38,690 bases of DNA from a virus. Lineage: Duplodnaviria; Caudoviricetes. A program made the translations under genes and the position numbers. The notes below the pieces were generated by a model, which saw only the letters and a program-made list of their open reading frames with translations, had not been told where the DNA came from and ran no database searches. The number at the start of each line of letters is the position of its first letter. The first letter of the stretch is position 1. Shown piece after piece: positions 4,615 through 37,397 of the stretch. Location: IMG/VR virus record IMGVR_UViG_3300028410_000003, positions 1 through 38,690 of that record; one strand, 5' to 3'.

Positions 4615-5337
4615 TTATGTAATAGTATGGCTAATCAGTTCGATTAATTTCTTTGCTGGTGCGGTTCGAGCAGCATTATAAGCACGAGAAGCAGCACGAG
4701 AAGCACGGGAAGCATCATAAACATCGGCACGATCAGCATAAGCACAAACAGCATAAGTATAAGCAGCATCAGCCGCACAAGCAGCATCATAAACATCGGC
4801 ACGAGCAACATAAGCATAAGCAGCATTATAAGCGGTATAAGCAGCATCACGAGCAACAGAAGCATAATCAGCGGTACGAGCTGCACGAGCAACTTCTTGC
4901 CACTCACTTCTTTCGACAGTTTCACCGTTTATTTTTCTTTGATATAAATCAGCCACATCTTGAACAACTTTCTTGTTCTTGGTGAATTTAATTACTCCAT
5001 GTTCAGGGTCAACAAGTAACCAGTGAACAAATTTATCTGTTACACCTGACAAATCAGAACCCACGTTTACAGCGTTTAGGAAATCAAGGGGAAACTGTTT
5101 TGCCTCTTGATGTGGTAAAGCCTCAAAAATAGAATCTTTTAATCTAGCTAGGGACTCAGGTATCCCAAGCTCAGTCTCATAAGCTTTATGATCATCGGAA
5201 TGTAAAGTACAACCGACTGCACACCCTTTTCCGTTCTCCCAATACGCACCTTTGATTATCTCGTCCGCATCGTAATGAGCTTTTAGACGCTTTACGTATT
5301 TATCTTTAATCTTTTGATCGTTGTGAAAAGTTTTCAT
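4615..5337 (-). CDS. Phage protein with GCAVGC motif and Ala/Tyr/Asp/Arg low-complexity repeat tail
   Basis: AAGGA RBS; globular N-terminus followed by a degenerate NNT-codon repeat at about 4660-4890. Confidence 0.8.
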   Translation of the reverse strand: MKTFHNDQKIKDKYVKRLKAHYDADEIIKGAYWENGKGCAVGCTLHSDDHKAYETELGIPESLARLKDSIFEALPHQEAKQFPLDFLNAVNVGSDLSGVTDKFVHWLLVDPEHGVIKFTKNKKVVQDVADLYQRKINGETVERSEWQEVARAARTADYASVARDAAYTAYNAAYAYVARADVYDAACAADAAYTYAVCAYADRADVYDASRASRAASRAYNAARTAPAKKLIELISHTIT

Positions 5338-5409
5338 GTTTTAATCCTTGTTTGTGTTTTTATAGAACCCCTCAAGCCTCTTCATATGCTCAACCCGAGG
5401 GGTCACTTT

Positions 5410-5661
5410 TTATTTATGAAATTCTTGATAAACTGTGTCACACAAAACATCTGCAACCTGTGAGTGAGTTCTTAAACCCTGACGCATAATAGTATCGTTA
5501 ACTTTGTTTAAATGCGCTAAACTAGCCTCTATTGCCTCTTCAAGAGTTAATTCATGCCTAATAACTTTTTTCAGAAATTTTTCTTTTAAGATAGTAGCCA
5601 CTGAGCCAGTAAAATCTGTAAAATCAGCGTTTGTCATTTGTAATTCTTTTTGTAAATCCAT
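5410..5661 (-). CDS. Hypothetical protein, first gene of the inverted cassette
   Basis: 83-aa ORF directly downstream of the predicted promoter at 5737-5709. Confidence 0.7.
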   Translation of the reverse strand: MDLQKELQMTNADFTDFTGSVATILKEKFLKKVIRHELTLEEAIEASLAHLNKVNDTIMRQGLRTHSQVADVLCDTVYQEFHK

Positions 5662-8609: not shown

Positions 8610-8631
8610 AAATTCTAAACTAGGTAATGAA

Positions 8632-23513: not shown

Positions 23514-23797
23514 TAGAATCAATTTGATGTTACAAAAAAGCTGCGCTGGGAGTGGACGGATGCCCCTTGTTATCATGCGCCCGTACAAAACTTGCAGTTT
23601 TCAAGCCGTTAATATTACATTGTTGTAACGGGGAAAAAGTGCTTTAGAGCAATGCGTTTCTTTTATGATTTGTTCACGATATTGATTTCGCTGACATGTT
23701 ATTTTGCATGATATAACAGCACCTTAGCTATTTGATTGTGTTTTGATTAGTGCCTTAATGCTAATCGGCAATAAGTAATTTTAAAAAGTTTTTCATG

Positions 23798-25060: not shown

Positions 25061-25147
25061 TTTATAAACTCCTAGTTTATTATTAAAAAATTGAGCCTTT
25101 TAAAGCTTACTCAGGCTATTCTTTAGAATCTCTACTTGATCATCCAT

Positions 25148-25477
25148 CTATTTAACCATTTCACGGATTACATTTATCACTAGAATTTTATTTTCTGGTG
25201 ATAACCTTTTCCATAAACACAGAGCATCATTATCAATCTTATGAAGATCAAGAAATTCTTCAGGTATTATTTCAAGAAAATCAATGTCAAGAGCGTTTGC
25301 AAGCTCAACCAATTTTCCAGATGAAATACGGTTTTCACCGGTCTCATATTTGCAAAGCTGCTGTGATGTCACATTTAAAACTTCAGAAACTTGCCTTCTG
25401 CTTTTGCCAGCCTTTTTCCTGATGGCTCTTACTTTTTCACCAAACAATATATCTTTTTCTGTTGATTTACTTGCCAT
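25148..25477 (-). CDS. XRE-family HTH transcriptional regulator
   Basis: GEKVRAIRK...VTSQQLCKYETGENRISSGKL..LA.AL; no peptidase domain. Confidence 0.9.
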   Translation of the reverse strand: MASKSTEKDILFGEKVRAIRKKAGKSRRQVSEVLNVTSQQLCKYETGENRISSGKLVELANALDIDFLEIIPEEFLDLHKIDNDALCLWKRLSPENKILVINVIREMVK

Positions 25478-25727: not shown

Positions 25728-26060
25728 TTAAGCCTTTTTAGTTTCTGATTTATTTTCTTTGATTGCCGGATTATCATCTTCATCAAATAAATCTGGTGAC
25801 ATTCCCAACGCTTTTTTATATGTATATAAAAGATATTCTCGTGCTTCTAAATCGCTTGCTTCAATTTTTCGTATCTTTAATATTTCACGAAGCGTTTTAA
25901 CATCAAATCCAGCACCTTTTGATTCTGCTAGAACCTCGTTGATGTCATTGGTTACGTTGCTTTTTTCTTCTTGCAAGCGTTCTAGGCGTTCTATAAACTG
26001 CTTTAAATGTTCAGCAGATAGACCGCCATAAAATGCGCCTGAATTATGTCCTTTTGCCAT
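25728..26060 (-). CDS. gapR: GapR/DUF2312 nucleoid-associated protein
   Basis: LKQFIERLERLQEEK..I.EV.AE.KG.GFDVK.LR...RK...LY..ALGM signature. Confidence 0.9.
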   Translation of the reverse strand: MAKGHNSGAFYGGLSAEHLKQFIERLERLQEEKSNVTNDINEVLAESKGAGFDVKTLREILKIRKIEASDLEAREYLLYTYKKALGMSPDLFDEDDNPAIKENKSETKKA

Positions 26061-26072
26061 GTTATACCTATA

Positions 26073-27035
26073 TTAAGTGTTAAAAAGTGGTTTTGGTTTA
26101 TCATCTTCAGTTGTGGTTTCAATCATAAGATCAGCTTCAGCTGCTAGTGAACGAACTTCTGCCTGAAAATCTTTTGTGCTTAGTTTTCCTATAATGGCTT
26201 TATCATTTAATTGTAAAGATCTCATAAAACCATCAAGGGCAACAGAGCCTGTAAGGGCAACATCTTTGCATTCCCTCATTAAGTTTCTTAGTCTCATATC
26301 AACCGCTTCACCACTTTCAGACCATTCACGAAGCTTTACACCTATATCTTTAGTAATAAGAGCTTGTTCACCATTGAAAAGATGCCTTAGTGGTTTAGGG
26401 CATTTTGTTATAATTGGTTTTCCCGCAACATTTTCATCCATCATCATTGATAAAGTCATTTCATACATAAAGTTTTTTTCTTGAATTGGCTGTGTACCAC
26501 AATCAACAACTTCGGTTTTACCTGTTTCGGGATTTTTTATAGGCTTGCTTTTTTCTCTTGCTCTTAGGCAAAAGATAATGTGCATGGGGCATTGTGTTAA
26601 AAGATTGATCAATTTCTTATGTGCCATTTTAGCCATTGCCCAGTTAGGCATTCCACGCAATTTATTATTTTCGGCTATATCCTGACAACCGCCGGAACCT
26701 TCCCATTCATGCGAGGCTGAATCAATAATTAAAACAGTCATTTTTTCTTTGATCGCCTCTTGAATTGCAAGAACATATCTTAGAGGCGTAAACGGTTCAG
26801 TTAAAGCTTGCCTGTAATATTGTCCATTAGGCATAGCAGATATTATATCTGGATCATCTGCATACATGCTACCACGTCCGGCTTCTGTGTCTATAAAAGC
26901 CACCTTGCCACCATCAACGCCCTCAGCAATACCACCAGCAATCTGTAATGCACTGTACGTTTTACCGGTTCCTGATTTTCCTGATAGTGATATTAATAAG
27001 GGTACAGCTTCCCTTTTTGCTATTTCATACGCCAT
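26073..27035 (-). CDS. AAA_24/Sak4-like ATPase (recombination)
   Basis: GKSGTGKTYSAL, IDTEAG, IIDSASHEWEG and YEMT motifs. Confidence 0.85.
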   Translation of the reverse strand: MAYEIAKREAVPLLISLSGKSGTGKTYSALQIAGGIAEGVDGGKVAFIDTEAGRGSMYADDPDIISAMPNGQYYRQALTEPFTPLRYVLAIQEAIKEKMTVLIIDSASHEWEGSGGCQDIAENNKLRGMPNWAMAKMAHKKLINLLTQCPMHIIFCLRAREKSKPIKNPETGKTEVVDCGTQPIQEKNFMYEMTLSMMMDENVAGKPIITKCPKPLRHLFNGEQALITKDIGVKLREWSESGEAVDMRLRNLMRECKDVALTGSVALDGFMRSLQLNDKAIIGKLSTKDFQAEVRSLAAEADLMIETTTEDDKPKPLFNT

Positions 27036-27068
27036 AACTTAAAACCCGTCCTTTTTTGTTAATACACT

Positions 27069-29813: not shown

Positions 29814-29833
29814 TTTCGTTTTCCTAGTTTAAA

Positions 29834-30121: not shown

Positions 30122-30153
30122 GTTTAAACCGTCCTTTTTGATTGTGTTAGTTA

Positions 30154-30212: not shown

Positions 30213-31349
30213 TTAAATATCCACTGTTTGATAGATAATATTAGGAATATGCTCATCAGCTAAAATAGTAACTTCGTCTTCATCAATCCACCTAGATGTT
30301 CCGAACCTCTCATAACAAGCTTGCAATTTGGTTATAGCAGTTCTCCAAAGAAGCTCTCCTTGCTCAAAATAGGCATTTGAAGTTGCATCAGGCACACAGG
30401 ATTTTTCTAGCTCGTAGGTTTTGCATTGATAGGGCGCTTGTGTTCTGAAAAACATAATGAAGAATTGTTTGTTTGAGTTTTTAAGAAACTCTTTTAACCA
30501 AGCATTATCAACCTCACCAAAAACTTTTGCTTTTCCAGCGTTTATTTTTTTGATGATGGTTTTTAAGGCTTGGCTGTAAACATAAAATTGATGATTGTAT
30601 TTTCTATACCGAATATCATTTAGCATGGTACGCTCTAACGGCAAGTTGTAGTCTTGAACAGAAAAAGACTTAACTTCACCTATTGCCTCAGGTCGCACAG
30701 CGTCAATCATGCACTTGCACATGATGCCAGTTTCTTCATCTTTCCATATAATCACAACTTCAGACATTGAGTTTTCCAAGATAGTTGGAATGCGTTTTTT
30801 TCTTTTTAGAGATGTTTTTATTCCCTCTAAAATTTCAACATCTCCACTTGATAAAATTCGTTTACCCGTCTTTTCAACGTCATAATTAAAATCATTTATG
30901 ACTTCATCCCAGATAATGTGTGTCTTTGGGTTAAGATATCCTAATGCCCTTTCTATTAAATCTTCTTTTTTGCCCGTTATATTTTCTCCAACTAAAGTAA
31001 GAAATGCTTTTATATCTTTAGATGTTTCTAATATTTCCTTTCCATGATAATCAGAAGGAGTGGGGGGTTGTGCGTATAAAGATTTAAACTTAATCGGCTC
31101 TAGTAACATACTATGGATTGCTGTTCCTAGCTCCATCGCCGGTGTTGTTTTTTGCGGCTTGCAGTTCGGATTCATAGCGGAATCTTCCCAGAATTGTTCA
31201 ACGCTAAAAAGCAGCTTATCGGCTCCTGATCTGCTGAAATAAGGAATCTTAAAATATTCGGCTTCAGGCATATTAAAATATAAACCTTCTTTGTATGGCG
31301 TAGATGAATTTTCTTCTGTTGGTTTTTTTTCTTGGATTAATTCACACAT
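30213..31349 (-). CDS. RecE/exonuclease VIII-like PD-(D/E)xK nuclease (DUF3799-like)
   Basis: AMELGTAIHSMLLEP, SEVVIIW.D..TG..CKC.ID and EVKS motifs. Confidence 0.85.
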   Translation of the reverse strand: MCELIQEKKPTEENSSTPYKEGLYFNMPEAEYFKIPYFSRSGADKLLFSVEQFWEDSAMNPNCKPQKTTPAMELGTAIHSMLLEPIKFKSLYAQPPTPSDYHGKEILETSKDIKAFLTLVGENITGKKEDLIERALGYLNPKTHIIWDEVINDFNYDVEKTGKRILSSGDVEILEGIKTSLKRKKRIPTILENSMSEVVIIWKDEETGIMCKCMIDAVRPEAIGEVKSFSVQDYNLPLERTMLNDIRYRKYNHQFYVYSQALKTIIKKINAGKAKVFGEVDNAWLKEFLKNSNKQFFIMFFRTQAPYQCKTYELEKSCVPDATSNAYFEQGELLWRTAITKLQACYERFGTSRWIDEDEVTILADEHIPNIIYQTVDI

Positions 31350-31380
31350 TTTTCACGTCCTTTTTATGTGGTTATTTCTT
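31347..31380. repeat. Stop-RBS-start boundary repeat (copy at 31936-31967)
   Basis: CAT-T(3-4)-CACGTCC-T(4-5)-ATGTGGTTATTTCTT on both sides of the Cys-repeat gene. Confidence 0.9.
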
Positions 31381-31938: not shown

Positions 31939-31958
31939 TTTCACGTCCTTTTATGTGG

Positions 31959-33046: not shown

Positions 33047-33070
33047 TATTATGACCGTCCTTTAATTAAT

Positions 33071-33621: not shown

Positions 33622-33681
33622 ACTTAATACCTAGTTTAAGATTAAAGAAAGCCTTTTTAAAACATGCCAAGGTTCAATAGT

Positions 33682-33993: not shown

Positions 33994-34022
33994 CTTATAC
34001 GGTATATTTTATAACCTGTCAA
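33994..34022 (-). promoter_or_regulatory. Strong leftward sigma70 promoter
   Basis: TTGACA-N17-TATAAG; TATAC-G-GTATA palindrome over the -10. Confidence 0.8.
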
Positions 34023-34082
34023 CCGCCTAATCGGCAATTCTTTTGATTTGCTCGAGCTATATACACAATTAATTATTGTACA

Positions 34083-34110
34083 TTGCATTAAAGATCAAAC
34101 GATATACAAT
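34083..34110 (+). promoter_or_regulatory. Promoter of the candidate sRNA
   Basis: TTGCAT-N16-TACAAT. Confidence 0.55.
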
Positions 34111-34113
34111 ATT

Positions 34114-34184
34114 TAGTAGGCACTTTGTGAACTCGTCCTTCATGTGGTTGCTATGGGGTGTGTTTCTCCTAGTTTACACACCCC
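34114..34184 (+). ncRNA. Candidate two-hairpin anti-RBS small RNA
   Basis: Hairpin 1 at 34114-34153 (loop CUCGUCC) and hairpin 2 at 34155-34184 (perfect 9-bp stem, loop UUCUCCUAGUUU); loops are complementary to many phage RBSs. Confidence 0.6.
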
Positions 34185-34208
34185 GACACAAATCTGATTA
34201 TATTTCTA

Positions 34209-34237
34209 TTGCAATCCCGTTTTCTTTTGTTTAAAGT
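34209..34237 (+). promoter_or_regulatory. Rightward promoter for the cro-like gene
   Basis: TTGCAA-N17-TAAAGT. Confidence 0.55.
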
Positions 34238-34272
34238 CGTAGATATCAACATTTATTTTATGGACGTACACA

Positions 34273-34491: not shown

Positions 34492-34519
34492 AACCACTTG
34501 AAAAACCAACAAAAGGAGA

Positions 34520-34759
34520 ATGATTGTGACTGATGAATTAAAACAACAAATAATAGATTCTATAAACAATGAAAATTGCAATCAGTATGTTTATTTAGAG
34601 CAAGAAGACGGCGCAATAGCTCTAAAGGGTAATTATTCCGACGACGTTGGCTTGAAGTTTATGAAGGTGATGGCGATTGAAAGACCTGCTGTGTATAGGC
34701 AGTTTAAAAAATGGGATGGAAAACCACCTAGAAAACCACTTGTAAAGCCCACTGAATAG
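34520..34759 (+). CDS. Hypothetical protein
   Basis: AAGGAG RBS; 79 aa. Confidence 0.75.
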   Translation: MIVTDELKQQIIDSINNENCNQYVYLEQEDGAIALKGNYSDDVGLKFMKVMAIERPAVYRQFKKWDGKPPRKPLVKPTE

Positions 34760-34781
34760 CCTATAATAATAAAACAATATC

Positions 34782-34845
34782 GGGGCTAGGTTAATGTTTA
34801 GCGGCATTGACGACAAAAGGAGTACCCTTACAGCACTCCTGCCCC
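34782..34845 (+). ncRNA. C4-antisense-like three-stem RNA upstream of the replication initiator
   Basis: GGGGC/GCCCC closing stem around two hairpins; loop CCUUACAGC is complementary to 34857-34862 and 34867-34873; upstream TTGTAA-N16-TATAAT at 34740-34767. Confidence 0.6.
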
Positions 34846-34880
34846 ACTCTTAAAAAGCTGTATCCGTGTAAGGAGGAATT

Positions 34881-35618
34881 GTGACTGGATGGATTAAATT
34901 ACATAGAAGTTTATTAGATTGGGAATGGTTCGACGACCACAACACTTTCCGACTGTTCACATATATATTATTAAAAGCTAATTTTGAGCCGAAAAAATGG
35001 CATGGGATATCTATTGCCCGAGGTCAGCTTTTAACAAGTTTACCTACGCTTGCATCAGAAACTGGTTTATCACTGCAAACAATACGCACATCATTAACTA
35101 AGCTAAAATCAACAGGCGAACTAACAGACAAACCAACATCCAAAAATAGGGTGTTAACCGTTGTTAATTATAATGATTTTCAGTCAATGGAAGTAGCGTT
35201 AACAGGCAAATCAACAGACAACCTAACAGACAAGCAACAGACAACTAACAGACAACTAACATCTACTAAAGAAGTAAAGAATATAAAGAAGGAAAGAAAG
35301 AAAGAATTAAGTAGACCTAAAGTCAGCCTTGAAGAGTTATCTGTAAATCATATTGCCGACTGGTTAGCTAAAAAAAGAACTCAAGGTAAATATCTAAATC
35401 ACAATGAACACGACATACTAGAAACGTTTAAGAATTACGTAGAATCAAAACAGAAAGTAGGAAAACCATTATATGAAAACTTTATCGCAGCATACAGAAA
35501 CTCTTTTGAATGGGATAGAAGCCAGCCAAAAGCAGGAACTCTTAACCCAGACAAGCACCAAAGAACCCTTGAAGCAGCAACGAGAGGACACATCAGAGCA
35601 AAAAACCTTGATTTCTGA
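34881..35618 (+). CDS. Phage replication initiator
   Basis: GWIKLHRSLLDWEW, LLKAN, RGQ..TS...LA wHTH; AAGGAGG RBS; internal iterons. Confidence 0.9.
   Translation: MTGWIKLHRSLLDWEWFDDHNTFRLFTYILLKANFEPKKWHGISIARGQLLTSLPTLASETGLSLQTIRTSLTKLKSTGELTDKPTSKNRVLTVVNYNDFQSMEVALTGKSTDNLTDKQQTTNRQLTSTKEVKNIKKERKKELSRPKVSLEELSVNHIADWLAKKRTQGKYLNHNEHDILETFKNYVESKQKVGKPLYENFIAAYRNSFEWDRSQPKAGTLNPDKHQRTLEAATRGHIRAKNLDF
35109..35264 (+). repeat. Iteron array, putative replication origin
   Basis: AACAG(A/G)C units at 35111, 35123, 35201, 35213, 35225, 35236 and 35247 with 11-12 bp spacing, followed by an A-rich tract. Confidence 0.75.
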
Positions 35619-36051
35619 TAGTGATGAGGATTCTTTAAAGTTAACACGATTGGTGACGACTTGTTACGAGGCTTTAAACGTGTACGGAAAAACACCTGAG
35701 CAGCTAGAAGCAATTATTGCAATTATGCAAATGGACTTAGAGGATTATACTTATTCGGTGGTAAGAGAAGCCTTTAAGATTTACCGAAAAACAAATTCAG
35801 CAATGCCTACGACTGCTGACATTGTAAAAATCATAGAGCCGCCACAAGAGGTGCCCAAATGGTGTGGAGCAACTTACATCCAGCTTTGCAAAAGAAAGCG
35901 TGAAAATCAATTTATGTTGCTTGAGGAGGAAAAGTACATGGCTGATTTTATTCAAGCTAGGATATCAGCGCCGGAGGAACAAAGGGGATTAATTGAAAAT
36001 GCAATTAGTGATAATGCTATTGCTGATAAACGTTATTGGATAGAGGGATAG
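35473..36051 (+). CDS. Putative helicase loader/inhibitor (G39P / lambda P-like)
   Basis: L.DY....V.EAF......MPT.ADI motif; follows the initiator; true start may be further downstream. Confidence 0.6.
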   Translation: MKTLSQHTETLLNGIEASQKQELLTQTSTKEPLKQQREDTSEQKTLISDSDEDSLKLTRLVTTCYEALNVYGKTPEQLEAIIAIMQMDLEDYTYSVVREAFKIYRKTNSAMPTTADIVKIIEPPQEVPKWCGATYIQLCKRKRENQFMLLEEEKYMADFIQARISAPEEQRGLIENAISDNAIADKRYWIEG

Positions 36052-36054
36052 ATT

Positions 36055-36354
36055 ATGAGCCAAGCACAAACATACGGAGGTTTAAACCTTCAACAAATAC
36101 AAAACTTGCCTACTTTGCAGCTACGGAAGCACATGCAAAAGTATGTAAATAAAAATTGGGGCAAGGTTATTGAGGAAGGTGAAACAAAGCAAATGTATAA
36201 AATAGAAGTGGAGTTACAACAAGATCCAACATATGAGAAATTCACTGTTCAAGCTTATTCAGAAGAGGAGGCGGAGGAATTAGCAGATTTACATGTAGAG
36301 AAACACTTTTCGTACGATGATTATGAGTTGTGCGAAATCAGGAAAGAGGAATAG
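36055..36354 (+). CDS. Hypothetical protein
   Basis: GAGG RBS; VQAYSEEEAEELA motif. Confidence 0.75.
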   Translation: MSQAQTYGGLNLQQIQNLPTLQLRKHMQKYVNKNWGKVIEEGETKQMYKIEVELQQDPTYEKFTVQAYSEEEAEELADLHVEKHFSYDDYELCEIRKEE

Positions 36355-36443
36355 AGTAATAAACGTAGCGAAAGCGAATCAAAAGTTAGAAAATAAACGG
36401 CTTTTAACCGAAAACATGTTACAATAATGAAAAAAGGTAGAAA

Positions 36444-36847: not shown

Positions 36848-37192
36848 ATGACATATTTAAACACTTATATACAACAAAAAAGCGCTATAAAAAATTCAAA
36901 GGAATGGGTCGAACATCTGACGGCGCGCGGACGAGAAAATACGAGTTGCTACATTCATAGCATAGGCGCAAACCCAAATCTTAGGATACAATATACTACA
37001 GGCGGAACAAACTATTGGGAGGCGAGTTATTGTGCTGGGGAGGAGTTTACAACCGCGTTAAATAAAGAGATAGAAAAAGATTTGCAGGTTTTATGCCAAA
37101 GAGCAATTAAGACTATGGAAAAAGAATTAGCAGAAAGCGAGGCTCTTGCGAAACGAGAGTACAAAACTTTATTTAATGAAAATATGGGGTAA
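36848..37192 (+). CDS. Hypothetical protein
   Basis: AAGGA RBS; 114 aa. Confidence 0.8.
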   Translation: MTYLNTYIQQKSAIKNSKEWVEHLTARGRENTSCYIHSIGANPNLRIQYTTGGTNYWEASYCAGEEFTTALNKEIEKDLQVLCQRAIKTMEKELAESEALAKREYKTLFNENMG

Positions 37193-37193
37193 A

Positions 37194-37397
37194 ATGGAAA
37201 AAGAAGAATTTAAACAATCACGCATAGCCTTAAGACTTAGCCAACGTAAACTAGCTAAAGTTTTAGGGCGTAATGTAAGAACAATTCAGCGTTATGAATA
37301 CGGAGATTGGACTGTATCAGTAGAAATAGCGGATAAAATGCAAGTTTTAGTAAAAGCTTTGCAAGAAATAAAGGAGATTGAAGATGGACAAAGATAA
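37194..37397 (+). CDS. Small XRE-family HTH protein
   Basis: EEFKQSRIALRLSQRKLAKVLGRNVRTIQRYEYG; start reassigned to the ATG at 37194. Confidence 0.85.
   Translation: MEKEEFKQSRIALRLSQRKLAKVLGRNVRTIQRYEYGDWTVSVEIADKMQVLVKALQEIKEIEDGQR

Follow-up and report, generated by a model that had tools for sequence, protein, structure and literature searches.

The c4 RNA of phages P1 and P7, as described in a 2025 review, carries complementary sequences, likely in loops, that pair around the ribosome-binding site (RBS) of the ant mRNA and block its translation (PMC12197685). In phage P4, the CI RNA is processed from the primary transcript and pairs with the flanking sequences seqA and seqC, leading to termination (PMC4825925). 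Cluster K mycobacteriophages carry SAS, an asymmetric repeated 13-bp motif that extends beyond 16S pairing and is located at the RBSs of non-structural genes from various families; in four genomes one copy is inverted, and the authors left the function open and raised an RNA partner as possible (PMC3203893). Cuckoo RNAs of Alphaproteobacteria consist of 2-4 adjacent hairpins with anti-Shine-Dalgarno (anti-SD)-like loops, with CCUCCUCCC in every loop (PMC4615179). Here we analyse a two-hairpin element in the early control region of an uncultured phage and compare it with these systems.

The stretch of DNA analysed (38,690 nucleotides; hereafter the window) is an entire virus record representing a complete phage genome of 38.7 kb with 38% G+C, and the whole record together with a 20-nt terminal repeat indicates a circular phage. 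A protein family scan identified Mu-like head genes, a leftward early operon encoding HNH, exonuclease VIII-like, Sak4-like, GapR-like and XRE proteins, and a rightward operon with a cro-like gene and replication genes, whereas none of the 62 window proteins scanned matched integrase, partition protein or antirepressor families. The GapR-like nucleoid protein (PF10073) is phage-encoded at 25728-26060, and its named homologues come from Rickettsiales and other Alphaproteobacteria. A related prophage (G022) in an alphaproteobacterial metagenome-assembled genome has the GapR-like gene and the head-tail module, with 11 structural genes, in common with the window. The -10 element of the leftward early promoter PL (TATAAG) lacks the -7 T, and such -10 elements are described as common in Alphaproteobacteria (PMC7703639). 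The host is likely an alphaproteobacterium, judging from these gene and promoter affinities. Cultured phages yielded no DNA match and no Cro match, and their terminases reach at most 49%.

The control region lies between the two early operons (Table 1), and its coordinates and layout, including a promoter ahead of two hairpins and a separate promoter for cro, proved correct when we re-checked the sequence-only reading. The element occurs in three distinct phages: the window (with the near-identical G002), G005 (a 7-kb fragment whose Cro is 50% identical) and G001 (37 kb, Cro 40% identical). PL, the hairpin promoter and the cro promoter follow in identical order in all three, and the -35 of the hairpin promoter stands at -50, -49 and -50 from loop 1. 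Spacing from the -10 predicts transcription to start near 34116-34118. The hairpins (34114-34184) are single-copy in the window, and no ORF of conserved length crosses them in the three phages. We rejected an encoded peptide. Stem 1 does contain a start codon in each phage, but in two of them the resulting frame has 14 codons, and in the window it is shifted. The 14-bp site is non-palindromic, is present in exactly two copies in the window, both on the minus strand, and takes the identical two positions in G001 and G005; with a consensus drawn post hoc, we regard it as a candidate operator, bound either by Cro or by a host factor. G002, 99% identical to the window elsewhere, has a different replication module after cro (window 34500-36400).

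Table 1. Features of the early control region and predicted target sites in the window (energies in kcal/mol; tag 1, AAGGACG; tag 2, AAACTAGG)
Feature	Position	Strand	Remarks
Leftward early promoter PL, TTGACA-17-TATAAG	33994..34022	-	17-nt spacer also in G001 and G005
14-bp site, candidate operator	34036..34049	-	13 nt upstream of the PL -35
Candidate sRNA promoter, TTGCAT-16-TACAAT	34083..34110	+	Common to three phages
Hairpin 1, loop CUCGUCC (34132-38), three G-U pairs	34114..34153	+	Loop with flanks antisense to tag 1
Hairpin 2, 9-bp stem, 12-nt loop (34164-75)	34155..34184	+	Loop antisense to tag 2
cro promoter, TTGCAA-17-TAAAGT	34209..34237	+	Conserved in three phages; 14-bp site in spacer (34220-33)
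Short tag 1 (GGACG) in cro RBS	34262..34266	+	AGGACG before cro in G001 and G005; -5.1, among the weakest
cro-like HTH gene, 72 aa	34273..34491	+	HTH_26 E 0.0011 (below cut-off); 11 homologues
Tag 2 before gene 33621	33630..33638	-	-5.6
Tag 1 before HNH gene 33046	33056..33062	-	-6.1
Tag 1 before Cys-repeat gene (ATG 31938)	31944..31950	-	Leader duplicated from that of the exonuclease
Tag 1 before exonuclease VIII-like gene 31349	31356..31362	-	Kept in G001 orthologue
Tag 1 before gene 30121	30130..30136	-	-8.2; G001 orthologue pairs over 14 bp
Tag 2 before gene 29813	29822..29831	-	-10.2; kept in G001
Tag 1 with extension (12 bp) before Sak4-like recombinase	27042..27053	-	-12.8; in G001, 12 bp before ERF gene
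Tag 2 before gene 25060	25069..25079	-	-10.0; G001 orthologue -14.3
Tag 2 before gene 8632	8616..8624	+	Gene after major capsid gene; kept in G001 and G003

Like c4, the element has loops predicted to pair at the RBSs of phage genes, but it differs in having two loops and two tags that would address about ten genes in three transcription units, and its candidate targets are many early genes rather than an antirepressor, a family that none of the 62 proteins scanned matched. Heteroimmunity in c4 systems reflects specificity that differs between related phages; the loop cores of the element are identical in the three phages and in a variant strain described below, and no lineage with changed tags was found. 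No Rfam family matched at the element, either at the gathering score or up to E 5, in the Infernal/Rfam check suggested at the outset. The element would work like c4 without being a member of the c4 family. With P4 CI it has in common the proposed RNA-based control of early genes and a position at the head of the rightward early region; unlike in P4, just the short cro tag lies downstream, and the other tags are on divergent and late transcripts. The resemblance to SAS is that of a repeated asymmetric motif a few bases before the starts of non-structural genes. Sequence and host are different, however, with two short tags (AAGGACG and AAACTAGG) in place of one 13-mer and no agreement with the 13-bp consensus, and the opposite-orientation copies here sit in the loops of a promoter-bearing hairpin pair. 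Cuckoo RNAs resemble the element in their adjacent hairpins, anti-SD-like loops and, probably, host class; by contrast, the loops CUCGUCC and UUCUCCUAGUUU are distinct from CCUCCUCCC and from each other.

Folding and base changes favour the + strand as the one that would be transcribed. Fold z-scores for the + and - strands are -3.26/-1.29, -4.97/-1.70 and -2.10/-1.07 in the three phages, favouring + in each; the sequence-only reading had expected this of hairpin 1, with its three G-U pairs. Neither the loop 1 region TCGTCCTTCAT nor the loop 2 core varies among the three phages. In the alignment of their stems, 43 of 45 cells are paired; four of the 15 stem pairs have one-sided changes, all four giving G-U on the + strand, and one has a two-sided, compensatory change. 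Hairpin 2 accounts for one compensatory and two wobble changes in its stem. These changes are compatible with pairing on +, but with three sequences the stem covariation does not reach significance, being equalled by 158 of 500 shuffles.

RsmY/Z-type sponges are transcripts that show GGA in their loops. On the minus strand, too, both hairpins can fold, and their loops then display GGA; a minus-strand RNA might in principle be a decoy of this kind for a translational repressor protein whose sites are the tags. We consider this very unlikely: minus-strand folds do not outscore shuffles (z -1.1 to -1.7), all four of the one-sided changes in the stems become A-C mismatches on that strand, and no leftward promoter to the right of the hairpins is common to the three phages. 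Two unlike tags would, in addition, call for two specificities. The fold and the wobble pattern thus set the element apart from RsmY/Z and favour a + strand RNA.

The two tags are concentrated at start regions. In the window, TAAACTAGG occurs five times, at four start regions (genes 25060, 29813, 33621 and 8632) and in loop 2, and AAGGACG occurs eight times, at five start regions, twice within coding sequence and in loop 1; the complementarity of the loops to these sites had been claimed from the letters alone, and the positions held on re-check. When start-region 8-mers were counted without using the loops, the top two were AAAGGACG (5/6) and AAACTAGG (4/5). Of the start regions with AGGA, CG comes next in 5 of 22 in the window compared with 1 of 225 in 16 control phages (p 2e-5), and in 3 of 20 in G001. 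Likewise, AACT precedes AGG in 4 of 42 window start regions compared with 3 of 434 in the controls (p 0.0015), and in 5 of 41 in G001. These counts come from a crude gene caller, and the 16 controls are capsid-related phages. The site at 8616..8624 is the sole tag in the late operon.

The set of tagged genes differs between the phages. Tag 1 is on cro in all three, and the first PL gene carries tag 2 in both G001 and G005; in the window, the first left-operon gene (33948) lacks a tag, which we count against our preferred interpretation, and the second carries tag 2. In G001, tag 2 is at seven starts among ten occurrences, including two genes without a window counterpart and two whose window counterparts lack the tag; conversely, three tagged window genes have no G001 counterpart, so each phage bears tags on non-orthologous genes. 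The Sak4-like recombinase (26073-27035) is replaced in G001 by an ERF-family gene (L393:1257-1997), and the upstream leader and last codons are kept. Two differences between these leaders fall within the paired stretch, yet G-U pairs preserve 12 bp with the RNA in each leader; wobble-compatible changes of this kind would be expected of base pairing with a + strand RNA. The recombinase match itself, first given as 11 nt with one G-U, is 12 bp with two. We had also considered the tagged first gene of G003 as an equivalent of cro and rejected it, because its product is not an HTH protein. Among relatives of the window, we found no lineage in which changed loops accompany changed tags, a further point against our interpretation.

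The Cys-repeat gene, whose start is most likely ATG 31938, and the exonuclease gene at 31349 have leaders that are a duplicate of about 30 nt, and we therefore counted them as one event; the Cys-repeat tag listed by the sequence-only reading exists as a site and not as a separate instance. That duplicated leader is also the one source of a proposed second pairing segment, UUCAUGUGGUU with AACCACAU. Runs from salt lakes contain a variant strain, about 92% identical, with five changes in the element: positions 34102-34143 and the CCUAGUU core are free of them, one replaces a G-C pair of a stem by G-U on the + strand, and those at 34144 and 34146 break the AACCACAU extension. These runs show no change in the exonuclease leader, so the extension is not supported; here the element and the leader were found on contigs of similar depth and taken as one strain. 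Among the matches listed, the element is not significantly more conserved in the variant than its flanks (5/71 compared with 26/177, p 0.14).

Loops rich in C and U could match Shine-Dalgarno (SD) sequences anywhere, and chance of this kind sets the baseline for any pairing score. We summed duplex energy and the opening energy of both partners over curated start regions and compared the loops with 300 random ones in which the anti-SD cores were fixed and the other loop letters randomised. For the 21 left genes and cro of the window (22 in all), the score was -109 compared with -60+-16 kcal/mol, with 1 of 300 controls as good; for 26 left genes and cro of G001 (27) with its own RNA, it was -152 compared with -91+-19, with 0 of 300. 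In the window test, the start of gene 37152 was mis-set. A repeat left out gene 9907, whose start was mis-set, and gene 31938, because of its duplicate leader, and the window without the duplicated leader (21 genes) scored -101 compared with -56+-14, with 0 of 300 controls as good. Both an enrichment of predicted pairing at start regions and complementarity beyond the generic SD core, as claimed beforehand, are supported by these computations in two genomes.

Late genes provide a measure of the generic component. The 22 late genes show a mild excess (-83 compared with -60+-13, 13 of 300 controls as good) and one site at -8 kcal/mol or lower, as opposed to five in the left set. Pooling the window and G001, such sites occur in 13 of 49 left-operon-plus-cro genes compared with 1 of 45 late genes (p 0.0009), a tally made by hand, with a threshold chosen after the data were seen and with other rightward early genes excluded. 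Those excluded genes reach the threshold in 3 of 12 cases in the window, through plain AGGAGA, and in 1 of 6 in G001. The late-gene excess and the AGGAGA matches indicate that part of the signal is generic anti-SD pairing; as a full account, chance is scarcely credible and largely refuted, as controls that kept the anti-SD cores still fell short in two genomes.

From the sequence, the conserved promoters and fold, and the complementarity with its excess over controls, all of which are directly observed, we conclude that the element is probably a c4-like antisense RNA that represses translation of early genes. An RNA of about 70 bases would be made on the + strand from its own promoter, starting near 34117. 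Since PL, the sRNA promoter and the cro promoter are all of housekeeping type, its synthesis would begin upon infection, alongside that of the PL and cro transcripts, and the RNA would then accumulate. It would pair loop-first either with tag 1 (recombinase, exonuclease, HNH, gene 30121 and cro), in which case pairing may extend into the 5' strand of stem 1, or with tag 2 (four genes in the window, seven in G001). Covering the SD 5-11 nt before the start codon, in leaders that are unstructured and A/U-rich, would block 30S binding. The predicted outcome is delayed negative feedback that shuts off the recombination genes, cro and the other tagged early genes, and that may silence a second infecting phage with identical tags. 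The notion of one sRNA addressing a multi-gene regulon through two RBS 'barcodes' is consequently backed by computation for a two-loop + strand RNA and two tags in three phages, but not for the second pairing segment.

The same RNA could pair with the tags and yet act mainly on transcription, through ribosome uncoupling and Rho-type termination of the PL transcript, a reading whose first steps are common to the mechanism above and which has a precedent in the P4 CI RNA (PMC4825925). Tag 2 is on the first PL gene in G001 and G005 or the second in the window, where silencing would expose naked RNA. Termination as the main effect is nonetheless quite unlikely, given that the tagged genes extend over 9 kb of the operon and include the late gene 8632, a distribution that suits gene-by-gene control.

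The lack of a U-tract after hairpin 2 in the window sequence counts against a discrete sRNA with a defined 3' end, and fits a purely cis-acting alternative in which the hairpins form the 5' leader when transcription reads through into cro, loop 1 silences or attenuates the longer message at the cro RBS, and the other tags have been spread by module recombination. In its favour, the partner sites of P4 CI are on the transcript that it comes from (PMC4825925), GGACG precedes cro in the three phages, and the duplicated leaders of 31938 and 31349 would fit such spread. We find this account unlikely all the same. The cro leader offers nothing for loop 2 to pair with, although seven G001 starts carry tag 2; cro has its own conserved promoter, and its match is among the weakest (-5.1); and the wobble-compatible changes in the recombinase leaders are not explained by copying.

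In phage HK022, put is a promoter-proximal two-hairpin antitermination element, with a copy after each early promoter. The window element likewise consists of two back-to-back hairpins directly after a promoter and upstream of the replication operon, and its loop matches would then be incidental. A put-like role is highly improbable: unlike put, the element has one copy only, with none after PL, and the tag statistics would go unexplained.

In place of antisense repression as a timer, a bolder version of the antisense reading makes the RNA the master repressor in place of a CI protein, silencing cro and the early regulon through its two RBS barcodes while Cro acts at the 14-bp sites, and so forming an RNA-protein switch with a non-integrated carrier state and superinfection immunity. 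There is no repressor gene between the early promoters of the window, as had been noted; the interval contains the RNA element alone, whereas the related prophage G022 (L531:7789-8414) has a divergent cro/repressor pair there, two repressor-family genes of 75 and 109 aa placed 74 bp apart. The claim that the RNA sits where CI would be holds for position only, because the RNA is transcribed towards cro and cI away from it. XRE-type HTH genes are present elsewhere (25148-25477 and 37146-37397), so possible repressors are not absent from the genome. With this orientation, XRE genes in the left operon and no integrase match, an immunity or switch role stays a bold reading that we regard as doubtful, and the lack of an integrase match favours a lytic timer or a carrier state over classical immunity.

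Searches beyond the three phages returned few candidates. An RNA model run against 35 records matched just its two training records, and none of the 15 other virus records (capsid relatives) with a completeness of at least 90%; against 151 alphaproteobacterial genomes it gave two weak matches, both without stems. A 14-mer pattern found at least 120 loci in viral contigs (10 of 64 parts), none of which scored with the DNA profile, and gapped patterns found 58 and 80 loci, among which the real ones were the three known phages and one near-identical genome. A metagenome pattern scan (at least 119 loci in 45 of 64 parts) recovered the window's own sequence alone, and a Cro alignment had no match in GTDB genomes. 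Locus L332 resembles hairpin 2, but we rejected it because it belongs to a GC-rich bacterial contig, where a membrane-protein gene follows it. Other capsid relatives have enriched start-region motifs of their own: G014 (L513-514; motif TTTGGGGG, 4/4), G007 (L499-500), G012 (L509-510) and G017 (L519-520). A crude search found no hairpin matching the motifs of these four, and a de novo search for loop-tag pairs in the 16 control genomes gave no convincing case, at a sensitivity limited enough that the window's own element was masked by a spurious 52-aa ORF.

Two further RNA features were seen elsewhere in the window. An Rfam abiF RNA match at 5368-5403 (+; 38.7 bits, above cut-off) is flanked by two minus-strand ORFs (4615-5337 and 5410-5661) inserted between portal and protease, and G001 has no counterparts of these ORFs at that position. 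A hairpin at 23742-23772 (+), between the converging late and early operons, has a loop complementary to ATTAAGG, which stands before three genes; it overlaps CTAATCGGCAAT, which is repeated exactly at 34027-38 and at two mismatches is not found beyond shuffles.

In the literature, mostly non-subscription papers, we found no description of a multi-target phage RNA of this type directed at its own regulon. As far as the sections of the 2025 review drawn on here go, each phage antisense RNA has either a single phage gene or host genes as its target, and the 38 sRNAs without function in its Table S1 may bear on novelty (PMC12197685). At about 70 nt with tags of 7-9 nt, the system is small enough for reporters, and the uncultured host is not needed. 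If the interpretation is true, it would provide a testable answer to the SAS question left open in 2011, the two loops would make a two-address system, and a phage RNA addressing its own regulon through RBS tags would represent a separate mode of early-gene timing.
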